Assembly: GCA_002457155.1 (NCBI GenBank)
Contig: NTJS01000005.1
Location: 1,694 to 65,693, forward strand
Reading direction: 5' to 3'
Source of the DNA: Marine Group II euryarchaeote MED-G35
GTDB lineage: Archaea; Thermoplasmatota; Poseidoniia; Poseidoniales; Thalassarchaeaceae
DNA length: 64,000 bases
Both the position numbers and the translations under genes were made by a program. Below the pieces are notes generated by a model. That model was not told where the DNA came from, searched no databases, and was given only the letters and a program-made list of their open reading frames with translations. Positions 24,180 through 26,838 of this stretch are shown here, one piece after another (positions within the stretch are counted from its first letter, which is position 1; every line of letters begins with the position of its first letter).

Positions 24180-25064
24180 CTAAGTGGATCGGGATTCAAT
24201 AATCCATTGTGGGAAGAAAACTGAGATCCATTTTGGAGGGTTAATATCTCCTTCCTCGTTGAAGAACGATCGAGTATATATTGAAATGAAATCAATCACA
24301 ATCACGACAAAGAAGATGATTATCAGGTAGGCGAATACCTTGTCATACTGTAGGAATTTAAGATAGAGATTGATGTAATATCCTATTCCACCGGCACCAA
24401 CAATCCCAATCACGGTCCCATGCCTGACGTTGTACTCGAACATGAATACTGCTTGGGAGATCAAGTTGTTTGCCTGCTCGGGAATTACCACCCCTATTGC
24501 TTTCTCCACCCTGGAAAGACCCATCGAATCCGCTGATTCCAACGGTATGTTGGACATCCCTTCTATTGACTCATACTGAAGTTTCCCGAGATAACCCACC
24601 GTGTAAATCGTCATCGCCAGAATTCCAGAGAGTGGTCCAAATCCGACTAGGATGACGAAAAATATGGCCCAAATGATACTGGGAAGGCTCCTGCATGCTG
24701 CAAGAAGAAATCTGGTTGGGAAGGTGACGAAGCCAGGATTCAGATTTCTGGAAGCTAATATTGAAATTGGGAGAGATATCATTCCTCCGAGAACAGTGGA
24801 AATGAATGCAATCTTTATTGTCTCAATCATTCCAATCCAAGCAGTGGAACAGGTAAAATCGAACAGCGGGTATGCCGTGCATACAGGATATGCTTGAGGT
24901 TCGAGTACGCTCCAATTCGGTGGCCAAAGTGACTCATTGAAGAATCTGATAAGATTCTGTCCTCCTCCAGATAGCCTGCCCCAATCGTTCACCAAACCAT
25001 CCATCAACCATAGTGATAGAATGATCAGAGCTGGGATAGTGATAGAAGTCCAATTTATCCTCAC
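24180..25064 (-). CDS. phnE: ABC importer permease, PhnE-like
   Basis: Multiple TM helices. Contains an EAA-type loop (ESADSMGLSRVEKAIGVVIPEQANNLISQ) and the PhnE-like block FEYNVRHGTVIGIVGAGGIGY. Its start overlaps the upstream ATPase gene by 4 nt. Confidence 0.85.
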   Translation of the reverse strand: MRINWTSITIPALIILSLWLMDGLVNDWGRLSGGGQNLIRFFNESLWPPNWSVLEPQAYPVCTAYPLFDFTCSTAWIGMIETIKIAFISTVLGGMISLPISILASRNLNPGFVTFPTRFLLAACRSLPSIIWAIFFVILVGFGPLSGILAMTIYTVGYLGKLQYESIEGMSNIPLESADSMGLSRVEKAIGVVIPEQANNLISQAVFMFEYNVRHGTVIGIVGAGGIGYYINLYLKFLQYDKVFAYLIIIFFVVIVIDFISIYTRSFFNEEGDINPPKWISVFFPQWIIESRST

Positions 25065-25777
25065 TTAGTCACCTCCAATGCTGTGGTCTGGGAGATAAAT
25101 GGATTCACCCGACCATCATCGATGACCAGCATCCTATCTGCGATCGATCTTGCTCTAGAAACATCGTGTTCCACCACAATAAGGGTGGCTGATTCCTTTC
25201 TTACGAACTCCACAACTTCTGTCTTCACCATCTCAAGAGTTTTCTCGTCGAGTTCGCTCAAGAACTCATCTGCAAGAATAATCTGTGGGGACTGCGCGAT
25301 CGTTCTTGCAATTGCTACCCTTTTTTGCTGGCCCCCAGACAATTTTCTTACTGGTTCGTAGAGTTTTCCGGATAGACCCATCCTACTGATAGAATCCAAG
25401 GATAAATCTTTGATTTTCCTGGATGGAAATATTCTGTATGGAGAAGAGTGGCCCGCTCTTGCGCCCAGCATAACGTTGTGCAAAACGCTAGCGTGACGAA
25501 CCAATCCCAACCGTTGTGGGATATAGCCCAGAGACCCTCGAGGAGGCCTAATCCCGAAAGGTTGGCCGAACAGGCTAACTCTACCGAACAGAGGCCTAAC
25601 TATGCCCGCAATTGTCCTGATAAGTGTAGTCTTTCCTACTCCAGAAGGACCAGTAATAGCAATGATTTCTCCTGGTGATATTTCCAGGCTAGGGATCTCC
25701 ACCAGAGGGGATTTTTTCGTGTATCCGATTGTCAAACCGTCTATACTGATAACCTTAGAATCCATTTCAACCCCCAA
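25061..25777 (-). CDS. phnC: ABC importer ATP-binding protein, PhnC-like
   Basis: Walker A (GPSGVGKTT), signature (LSGGQQKRVAIARTIA), Walker B (IILADEFLSELD) and H-loop (VEHD). Confidence 0.9.
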   Translation of the reverse strand: MGVEMDSKVISIDGLTIGYTKKSPLVEIPSLEISPGEIIAITGPSGVGKTTLIRTIAGIVRPLFGRVSLFGQPFGIRPPRGSLGYIPQRLGLVRHASVLHNVMLGARAGHSSPYRIFPSRKIKDLSLDSISRMGLSGKLYEPVRKLSGGQQKRVAIARTIAQSPQIILADEFLSELDEKTLEMVKTEVVEFVRKESATLIVVEHDVSRARSIADRMLVIDDGRVNPFISQTTALEVTK

Positions 25778-25785
25778 TTCGGAAT

Positions 25786-26838
25786 TTATGGGGTCCTAAT
25801 ACTATATTTGTCGTTGTAGTAGGCTACAATTCCAGGGATATTCTGAATCGAAGAAGAGTAGCTTCCCATGTGTCCCTCAGTTGTTACCGAAACAAAACCA
25901 GGCGTGTTTAGGACGCCACTCAATATGGATGATGCATCCGCGTCATCTGCCATTCCTATGAGAACACCTCTTACGGCATCGACTTTGGATTTCGACATTG
26001 TCTCTGGGTTATACATCACAGGATGGCTAGGGGACTTGCCGAACTCGGGTAGTGCGACGTACTGGTCCATGTCCAGACACCACTCCTCGTTTTCTGCTGA
26101 GTTCTCGTTATCGCAGTACGAGTCCACCGTGCTGTCCTTGGCAAAGGCCACGTCTCCGACTCCCTCAGACAGGCACTTCACGGCGCCAGAGTATCCGTAG
26201 TAAGGAGTGCCCGAGTCTGGGATGGAGGCGTTCTCGTTGAAGAAGCCGTAGATCGTGTCCCTTAGTGAAGAGACGTCGGTCCCGTCTCCGACCACGGTTG
26301 CGTACCCGTTACCGATTAGGTAACCCATAGGTAACAGCATTCCTGCTGACTTCAGCCATCCTGTGTGACAGGATGTCTTTCCTTCCAGAAGTGCGAACGG
26401 GTCGGTAGATGGGTCATCGTCCAAGTGGGCAGCAGCGATGTCGCTGTCTGCTAGAACCCATGCATGAGCGTTGTAGTGGGTCCTGCCATCGCTTTTCAGA
26501 TCGGCTGCCATGGAGGCTAGGCCGTATTCCTTCCATCCTACCCATGCTGCTCCTCCGTCCATGAATCCGATGTCGGCATTACCGAACCTTAGGGCCTCTA
26601 GCATTGCACCCTCTGAATCTACACTGAAAAGAGAAACATCGTAGTTTAGCTGCTCAGACAAATAGTCTGCGAATGACTGGGGATTCTCGTCTATGTTTTC
26701 ATAATCGTCTCTTACTTCGTAAGCAATGACCAATGTGTCGATCGGTTCATCATTTTCATTATCACCTGTACAACCTGCCAGTGATGCACTAACCATCAAC
26801 GCCATCAGTAAACTCGCCATCTTCTTCTTTCCATTCAT
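25786..26838 (-). CDS. Lipoprotein substrate-binding protein of the ABC importer; transferrin-like (single lobe), predicted Fe3+/(bi)carbonate binding
   Basis: Signal peptide plus lipobox SLAGC (Cys23 at 26770-26772). Several blocks match the transferrin N-lobe as recalled from memory: [61 protein letters not shown] and SPSHPV. It is the first gene of the phnC/phnE-like operon. Confidence 0.8.
   Translation of the reverse strand: [350 protein letters not shown]

Follow-up and report, generated by a model that had tools for sequence, protein, structure and literature searches.

Within a 64,000-nucleotide (nt) stretch of DNA from the Marine Group II (MGII) euryarchaeote MED-G35 (contig NTJS01000005.1, positions 1,694 to 65,693), we analyzed three consecutive minus-strand genes that encode a transferrin-like substrate-binding lipoprotein together with an ATPase and a permease of the ATP-binding cassette (ABC) type. 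The whole stretch is referred to below as the window, and positions are counted from its first nucleotide. Based on sequence comparisons, we predict that the three genes form an iron-repressed, high-affinity ABC importer for Fe3+, probably as Fe3+-carbonate, which employs a transferrin-type receptor, and we estimate the probability of this assignment at approximately 75%. An earlier note on the same DNA had already preferred iron to phosphonate as the substrate. This preference is now supported by three predicted features, namely, a tandem box of the TroR/DtxR type ahead of the operon, DtxR-family genes that adjoin the operon in related archaea, and the co-regulation of genes for Fea1-type lipoproteins and flavodoxin.

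The binding protein is a single-lobe protein of 350 amino acids (aa) encoded by an open reading frame (ORF) at positions 25786 to 26838 (minus strand). It carries a signal peptide with the lipobox LAGC (Cys23; 26770 to 26838, minus strand), in which G22 and C23 do not vary across 27 homologues. The lipoprotein ORF that the earlier note had described is real. A number of searches place the protein in the transferrin family. (i) The comparison of Pfam profiles that had been proposed as a check gave 70.1 bits for Transferrin (PF00405; cutoff, 20.3), distributed over two stretches of the protein, and a slightly higher score of 76.6 bits for Phosphonate-bd (PF12974; cutoff, 27), so that both cutoffs were passed. 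(ii) The scores obtained with the NCBIfam models TIGR01098 (58.7 bits; cutoff, 112.05) and TIGR03431 PhnD (34.5 bits; cutoff, 261.1) were below the respective cutoffs. (iii) A phmmer search of the Protein Data Bank (PDB) retrieved 96 matches, the best of which was horse lactoferrin (E = 3.4e-29). All 60 matches listed belong to the transferrin family, comprising transferrins, lactoferrins, and relatives such as saxiphilin, and no PhnD-type protein was found among these 60. (iv) BLASTP against the N-lobe of human serotransferrin, a reference 100% identical to residues 1 to 331 of PDB 3ve1_B, returned an E value of 1e-17 with 29% identity over 252 aa. This alignment with a verified human sequence reproduced all five sequence blocks that had previously been matched to transferrin. 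As judged from these sequence comparisons, the transferrin-family score is far above chance and the homology is real. The earlier note had left open whether the family is already cataloged. Names do exist in current databases, but they are generic and range from "PhnD/SsuA/transferrin family substrate-binding protein" to "melanoma-associated antigen p97"; the JGI/NCBI label [quoted passage not shown] is also in use.

The four residues aligned with the metal ligands of human transferrin are D94 (26557 to 26559; transferrin Asp63), Y122 (26473 to 26475; Tyr95), Y216 (26191 to 26193; Tyr188), and H272 (26023 to 26025; His249), all of which are predicted to coordinate the metal. The predicted synergistic-anion site comprises T159 and K163 (26350 to 26364), which correspond to Thr120 and Arg124, respectively; K163 is directly followed by S164-A165-G166. 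BLASTP returned the same six residue pairs that had been assigned by eye, and the codon positions given at that time are arithmetically correct for a minus-strand gene that starts at 26838. The six site residues and four cysteines (C157, C222, C242, and C254) are invariant in the 27 homologues, which share 59 to 91% identity. Furthermore, the signature D-Y-T-K-Y-H was present in all 38 single-lobe genes of the related loci from GTDB genomes and in both lobes of 41 of the 45 two-lobe genes. C157 and C222 align with the cysteines of the transferrin disulfide Cys118-Cys194, and on the basis of this alignment a disulfide is predicted here as well. In the binding protein, the motif CHTGxxKSAG replaces the phosphonate-type loop TSxTGSSG of the PF12974 relatives, and the alignment shows that the characterized protein PtxB is devoid of the Asp, the second Tyr, and the His.

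The ligand set is thus complete and conserved, as had been claimed. However, it is less diagnostic than had been assumed, because the same four metal-ligand residues occur at the aligned positions of the nearest cysteine-free, PhnD-like members of PF12974, namely, P0202, P0220, and P0245. These three proteins contain no cysteines and possess the phosphonate-type loop FTSRTGSSG, and their similarity to PF12974 is pronounced (171.4 bits for P0202 and 150.6 bits for P0220). The four residues are therefore older than the transferrin-type anion site and the cysteines. Taken alone, they are no proof of iron binding, and much of the weight is carried by the regulatory and contextual evidence. The gene for P0220 (L098:4113-8706) is located on an archaeal contig, just downstream of the CbtA/CbtB cobalt-transporter genes and a gene for a small helix-turn-helix regulator.

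The AlphaFold2 model of the binding protein has a mean pLDDT (the confidence score of the model) of 86.1 and appears to represent the open form. In this model, D94 is located just ahead of helix 95-105 and Y216 at the start of helix 215-224. The two inter-domain strands contribute Y122 (strand 121-129) and H272, the latter at the transition from strand 267-270 to strand 273-276. T159 and K163 are placed at the N-terminus of helix 164-176, which begins with S164-A165-G166. Transferrin lobes provide one ligand from each domain and two from the crossing strands, and the secondary-structure placement of the ligands in the model fits this arrangement.

The binding-protein gene is the first of the operon and is followed by genes for a PhnC-like ATPase and a PhnE-like permease; ORF positions and profile matches thus bear out the gene order that had been reported before. 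The ATPase ORF (25061 to 25777, minus strand) begins 8 nt past the end of the binding-protein gene. Its product matches PF00005 with 95 bits, and its best NCBIfam model is TIGR02315 PhnC, at 144.8 bits and under the cutoff of 266. The permease ORF (24180 to 25064, minus strand) overlaps the end of the ATPase ORF by 4 nt, and its product matches PF00528 and TIGR01097 PhnE (218.7 bits; cutoff, 216.7). To determine the conservation of this arrangement, we used 88 related loci for gene-neighborhood counts and, for the analysis of promoters, the 75 related loci with upstream sequence. The ATPase gene adjoins the binding-protein gene in 81 of the 88 loci, and the permease gene is present in 75.

Two predicted operators precede the operon. 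The distal operator, TTTAGGCTAGCCTAAA (26882 to 26897), is a perfect inverted repeat of the TroR/DtxR-type iron box. The proximal operator, which reads TTTAGTGTTGCCTAAA on the gene strand (26838 to 26853), has one mismatch and ends with the A of the start codon. The two boxes are separated by 44 bp from center to center within the 104-bp intergenic region shared with a divergent gene, and the distal box lies between the two divergent promoters. Two matches to TTTAGG-N4-CCTAAA were found in the 64-kb window, compared with 0.04 expected. Among the 75 loci, a box precedes the orthologous gene as an exact match in 64 and with at most one mismatch in 71. At least two boxes were detected in 55 of these loci, with spacing modes of 33 to 35 and 43 to 45 bp. 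The arms of the box are fixed and its center is variable, as would be expected for a dimeric regulator. The box is also specific for this set of genes: the related loci (995 kb) contain 116 exact boxes, 105 of which are located at the start of the binding-protein gene, and the remaining ones are found ahead of the ATPase gene in two-lobe loci, of a paralogous binding-protein gene, or of a Fea1 gene. An uncertain, weak third box, TTTATGGGGTCCTAAT (25785 to 25800; two mismatches), is located in the window where the binding-protein gene borders the ATPase gene, a position at which three other loci (L014, L068, and L076) have an exact box upstream of the ATPase gene. Approximately 26 to 32 nt before the ATG, the two upstream boxes enclose an AT-rich stretch (cataatag) that resembles a TATA element. 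A leaderless transcript would therefore have its core promoter flanked by the two boxes. A scan for bacterial promoters and terminators yielded counts at the level of shuffled sequence; the bacterial consensus is not applicable to archaea.

[quoted passage not shown] The TroR motif was determined by chromatin immunoprecipitation sequencing as TTTAGGC-NNN-CCTAAAANAN (PMC10783522) and is also written as TTTAGGC-NNN-CCTAAA. Under iron-replete conditions, TroR represses siderophore and iron ABC-transporter genes via tandem sites approximately 30 bp apart, and the manganese-associated SirR motif, TTTwGAnnnnTCwAAA, is different (PMC10783522). Candidate regulator genes were found next to the operon in relatives. 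At L088 and L089 (protein P0160) and at L090 (P0142), a DtxR-family gene is located directly upstream on the same strand; the L090 contig is archaeal, since it also carries the gene for ribosomal protein S6e. In five loci of Marine Group III (MGIII), namely, L067, L073, L078, L080, and L084, a DtxR-family gene (PF01325 and PF02742) is divergent from the operon, and the boxes are found in the shared spacer.

We then compiled the distribution of the family. A word-indexed search returned 698 relatives, of which the top 120 all contained both Pfam domains and originated from marine metagenomes or from metagenome-assembled genomes (MAGs) of Poseidoniales, Thalassarchaeum, or "Euryarchaeota." A phmmer search over 1.84 billion cluster representatives identified 393 clusters at E values of ≤0.001. 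In one genome per GTDB species, 424 relatives were detected, and the best 80 of these came almost entirely from MGIII and the two families of MGII; the original MG-II assembly CM001443.1 was among them. Distant single-lobe versions with 33 to 52% identity were present in other Thermoplasmatota and on high-GC contigs, and the archaeal family is limited to the Thermoplasmatota. Four loci (L031, L059, L066, and L076) are filed under bacterial MAGs or single-amplified genomes (Salinimicrobium, Yoonia, Deltaproteobacteria, and Flavobacteriaceae). They are probably misbinned archaeal contigs, because their genes are 61 to 70% identical to those of MGII.

In some of the relatives, genes of the Fea1/ISIP2a family are located behind the same boxes (L032:6050-7699; L091 to L094:6001-7245; L095 to L097:6001-7242). 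The Fea1 family is inducible by low iron and includes the diatom phytotransferrin ISIP2a, and both Fea1 and flavodoxin are classic low-iron markers. At L032, L091, L092, and L094, two boxes precede a gene for a Fea1 lipoprotein (PF07692, 89.3 bits; cutoff, 25), which is followed by the transferrin-like gene, the ATPase gene, and the permease gene. At L095 to L097, two exact boxes are located between a ferrochelatase gene and a Fea1-flavodoxin gene pair, and a further box is found between the transferrin-like gene and the genes for the ATPase and permease. Fea1-type lipoproteins occur widely in MGII (885 matches, one of which is named "FEA1-related lipoprotein" at NCBI); no Fea1 gene is present in the window. 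The window does contain a flavodoxin gene (23355 to 23810, minus strand; PF00258, 105.5 bits), which is located 369 nt downstream of the permease gene on the same strand and has no box of its own in the window. Flavodoxin occurs at this position in only 6 of the 88 loci and is therefore supportive rather than defining; it may participate as an accessory in the low-iron response. Three loci (L032:11928-14225, L038:4023-6293, and L091:11337-13245) contain a second single-lobe transferrin-like gene that codes for an N-terminal membrane anchor, has its own box, and is followed by the gene for a lipoprotein of the glucose/sorbosone dehydrogenase (GSDH) family.

The mechanism that we propose is as follows. 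The lipid-anchored binding protein would capture inorganic Fe3+ at the cell surface through two tyrosinates, one aspartate, and one histidine, and a synergistic anion, most likely carbonate, would be held by T159, K163, and the helix N-terminus at S164-A165-G166. The loaded binding protein would then dock on the PhnE-family permease, and the PhnC-like ATPase would power import. Under iron sufficiency, an iron-loaded dimer of the DtxR/TroR family would bind to the two boxes, which would flank the TATA region and cover the start of a probably leaderless transcript, and thereby repress transcription; iron scarcity would release the operon.

A number of observations weigh against an Fe3+ importer. 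(i) The permease score is just above the PhnE equivalog cutoff, and PhnC is the best model for the ATPase. (ii) The anion site has Lys163 in place of the transferrin Arg124. (iii) The aligned Asp, Tyr, Tyr, and His are shared with P0202, P0220, and P0245, as described above. (iv) A Foldseek search with the model retrieved PtxB and AioX on equal terms with the transferrins (E of ~1e-15; TM score of ~0.6), and the fold is not decisive because of this tie. (v) The operator consensus was established in Haloferax, a member of the Halobacteria and thus of a different class. (vi) No DtxR gene was detected in the window by tblastn. (vii) The DtxR-family regulators encoded beside the MGIII and L090 operons are of the short two-domain type, and the DtxR family includes Mn2+ sensors.

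The last of these points, like the lysine at the anion site and the proximity of the gene for the cysteine-free P0220 to those for CbtA/CbtB, would be compatible with a metal importer for another substrate, be it Mn3+/Mn2+, Al3+, Ti4+, a Ga3+-like ion, or Fe3+ in combination with another anion or a small organic chelate. Transferrin sites accept many tri- and tetravalent metals, as well as anions other than carbonate. However, the box corresponds to that of the iron regulator TroR and not to the manganese-linked SirR motif, and the co-regulated genes encode low-iron markers. In addition, the combination of Tyr, Tyr, Asp, and His with Thr and Lys is that of the Fe3+/carbonate site of transferrins, in which Lys at the position of Arg124 is common, both in holozoan and in other eukaryotic lobes. 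Another metal or another anion is hence an unlikely alternative to Fe3+-carbonate.

We consider it very unlikely that the system imports phosphonate, phosphite, or hypophosphite, in which case the binding protein would be a divergent member of the PhnD/PtxB type that uses its transferrin-like residues to bind the oxyanion. Such an importer would agree with the slight excess of the PF12974 score over that of Transferrin, with the PhnE and PhnC profiles of the transporter components, with the phosphate/phosphonate names in the JGI/NCBI annotation, and with the fold similarity to PtxB and AioX, and the four ligand residues also occur in strong PF12974 members. Phosphonate transport has moreover been listed as a core trait of MGII (Tully 2019; PMC6336850). 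Against this stand the failure of the binding protein to reach either of the curated PhnD-type cutoffs, the replacement of the TSxTGSSG loop by CHTGxxKSAG, and the presence of two transferrin-type cysteine pairs. The regulatory data point in the same direction: the operon has a TroR-type iron box and adjacent DtxR genes rather than any phosphate-linked element, and it is Fea1 and flavodoxin genes that are co-regulated. Furthermore, no phosphonate-catabolic genes were found among the 28 window ORFs scanned, which represent part of the window, and neither carbon-phosphorus lyase nor phosphonatase was seen in the neighboring genes of the related loci inspected. A single-cell survey (GORG-Tropics), in which 80% of the archaea were MGII, likewise identified no phosphonate-consuming archaea (10.1101/2020.11.04.368217).

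The iron-binding receptor that we predict occurs in two architectures. A single-lobe transferrin had been noted for the window, and this holds for the window copy; most members of the family are two-lobed. Of the 83 orthologous genes in GTDB loci, 45 code for two-lobed proteins of approximately 700 aa (for example, L008:8001-10100 and L047:7980-10106, in addition to 43 other loci; proteins P0001, P0003, and P0121), and 38 code for single lobes. In a tree of individual lobes, most N-lobes and most C-lobes form separate groups, with single-lobe proteins nested in each, which suggests one old lobe duplication followed by repeated lobe loss. The window protein pairs with the N-lobe of L008, its closest relative, and by its position in this tree it descends from the N-lobe type. 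A set of two-lobed paralogues (P0122, P0123, P0127, P0129, P0130, and L068:10417-12534) has lost the ligands in one or both lobes (e.g., DYTKFD/AHTDPE) but retained the four cysteines, which suggests a changed function similar to that of some eukaryotic transferrin relatives.

The archaeal proteins had also been suggested to be an extant link between PhnD-type binding proteins and transferrins, and this idea fits both a gradient of Pfam scores and a neighbor-joining tree. The Transferrin and Phosphonate-bd scores are, respectively, 584 and 24 bits for the human transferrin N-lobe, 113 and 47 bits for a single lobe from Abeoforma (P0164), 63 to 91 and 54 to 97 bits for the archaeal single-lobe proteins, and 22 and 171 bits for P0202. 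The nearest eukaryotic relatives, with 33 to 40% identity, are multi-lobe, membrane-anchored transferrins of unicellular Holozoa, namely, of Chromosphaera, Creolimax, Amoebidium, Ichthyophonus, and Abeoforma; a further one with the gene-model prefix "Clim" is presumably from Corallochytrium. In the neighbor-joining tree, a distance-based analysis rooted on PhnD-like proteins, all eukaryotic lobes, including the human ones, group into a single clade (bootstrap, 99) that is nested among paraphyletic archaeal lineages, whose nodes have values of 80, 75, and 54. With this modest support and possible long-branch effects, the tree is compatible with an archaeal origin of transferrins but does not prove it.

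It is accordingly only a tentative proposal, and one that we hold to be possible rather than probable, that animal and holozoan transferrins descend from the Thermoplasmatota family, through a marine archaeal gene acquired by an ancestor of Holozoa, and that this family, as the receptor of an iron-regulated ABC importer, in turn arose from PhnD-like proteins. If so, (i) the acquired gene would have been freed from its transporter, and the archaeal family would have kept the ancestral mode of action; (ii) the two-lobed transferrin of approximately 700 aa would have evolved independently in archaea; (iii) MGII would take up inorganic iron with high affinity mainly through what has been called their "core phosphonate transporter"; and (iv) this route could depend on carbonate and thus be sensitive to seawater chemistry. 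The opposite direction, a recent archaeal capture of a eukaryotic transferrin lobe that was later joined to PhnCE and perhaps serves to sequester or sense iron at the surface rather than to transport it, is highly improbable: it could draw on the identity to holozoan transferrins and on support of only 54 to 80% for the deeper nodes, but the gene heads a tight operon with the ATPase and permease genes in 75 to 81 of the 88 loci, its product has a higher PhnD-family profile score than the eukaryotic lobes, the archaeal sequences are paraphyletic around the single eukaryotic clade with its 99% bootstrap value, and relatives are spread over the GTDB species genomes scanned, with almost all of the best 80 in MGII and MGIII.

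The gene that shares the operator-bearing intergenic region with the operon (26943 to 28940, plus strand) encodes a divergent surface protein of 665 aa and is syntenic in 50 of the 88 loci. The protein has no Pfam match, and it combines an N-terminal His-rich segment with a membrane anchor at the C-terminus. Its homologues are specific to MGII; the matches with 100% identity are assigned to Thalassarchaeaceae and to MED-G35 and thus identify the source of the window. Its AlphaFold2 model (pLDDT, 70.6) matched only immunoglobulin/fibronectin type III-like and S-layer folds in Foldseek. Homologues, alignment, model, and Foldseek search provided no link to iron, and this protein is at most a possible member of the system. 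It is followed by a 174-aa ORF (28942 to 29466, plus strand) without Pfam match that has a long Arg/Gly-rich tail with repeats of the RGG/GGSRGRG type and, by eye only, resembles a Gar1-like RNA-binding protein. The region is flanked by two giant ORFs of 2189 aa (15429 to 21998, plus strand) and 2258 aa (30481 to 37257, minus strand); the orthologue of the first in related loci contains a subtilisin-type protease domain and many RCC1 repeats. The giant protease gene is closely followed by two tRNA-Leu genes (anticodons CAG and TAG; 21999 to 22083 and 22139 to 22223, minus strand), and further along the window there is a tRNA-Gln gene (44596 to 44671, plus strand).

MGII archaea are among the most abundant planktonic archaea. 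To our knowledge, they have no cultured member, and we know of no phosphonate catabolism in them. An assignment to iron import would change their predicted nutrient ecology, since genome papers list this transporter as a phosphonate uptake system (PMC6336850). The transferrin-type operon would also provide a concrete marker of iron stress for metatranscriptomes, and it raises the question of whether iron uptake by MGII depends on carbonate, as has been reported for the diatom phytotransferrin. In evolutionary terms, extant members of the family are intermediate between PhnD-type binding proteins and transferrins, and the two-lobe architecture seems to have arisen in it independently. Because its closest eukaryotic relatives belong to the unicellular kin of animals, the origin of transferrins is directly testable. 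A full-text literature search of incomplete coverage returned no publication in which transferrin is connected in this way with Poseidoniales, MGII, or PhnD.

The system can be compared with several known ones. As for its regulation, the TroR regulon of Haloferax volcanii is alike in the operator motif, in the tandem copies tens of bp apart, and in its presence at iron-uptake promoters (PMC10783522). The Haloferax sites are located approximately 100 nt upstream of the start codons, whereas those of the window are 44 to 59 nt upstream and abutting the start codon. Moreover, Haloferax belongs to another archaeal class, the regulator gene of the MGII system is outside the window, and binding to its boxes is predicted.

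With respect to the proposed mode of action, FbpA/FutA/IdiA and their transporters FbpBC/FutBC are similar in that tyrosinates and a synergistic anion hold Fe3+, which is taken up by ABC import (PMC7676907 and general knowledge). The binding protein of the window had no Pfam or NCBIfam match to the FbpA/FutA-type families; it is a sequence homologue of transferrin and belongs to a different family of binding proteins. The likeness of FbpA/FutA to transferrin is usually treated as convergent.

In terms of ecology, the phytotransferrin ISIP2a, according to the account of McQuaid 2018 given in PMC7676907, mediates the carbonate-dependent surface capture of inorganic Fe3+ in marine plankton. ISIP2a/Fea1 (PF07692) is a different family, and uptake in algae proceeds by endocytosis and not by an ABC importer. 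A link to the system described here exists through the Fea1 lipoproteins of MGII, which are located behind the same operator and sometimes within the transferrin-like operon. McQuaid 2018, again as related in PMC7676907, also put forward that transferrin and phytotransferrin share an origin among phosphonate-binding proteins.

The PF12974 proteins PhnD, PtxB, HtxB, and AioX share with the binding protein the superfamily, the predicted fold, the type of transporter partner, and the operon layout. It differs from them in failing the curated cutoffs for PhnD and for phosphate/phosphite/phosphonate binding, in lacking the Ser/Thr-rich phosphonate loop, in being encoded under an iron-type operator, and in possessing the transferrin ligands and cysteines, which the characterized PtxB lacks.

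Finally, the eukaryotic transferrins of PF00405, comprising serotransferrin, lactoferrin, ovotransferrin, and melanotransferrin, differ from the archaeal protein in several respects. The latter is lipid anchored and encoded at the head of an ABC-importer operon, and it would deliver its cargo by docking on a permease, unlike the eukaryotic proteins, for which delivery is receptor mediated and involves endocytosis. A single lobe makes up the window copy, which carries Lys for Arg124 and has kept a strong PhnD-family profile score, and the archaeal lobe duplication appears to be independent of the eukaryotic one. The likeness comprises the sequence, the Asp/Tyr/Tyr/His set, the cysteine pair of the Cys118-Cys194 type, an anion site formed by Thr, a basic residue, and a helix N-terminus, and, as predicted, the two-domain binding-protein fold, and the two-lobed relatives of approximately 700 aa resemble the layout of the vertebrate proteins.

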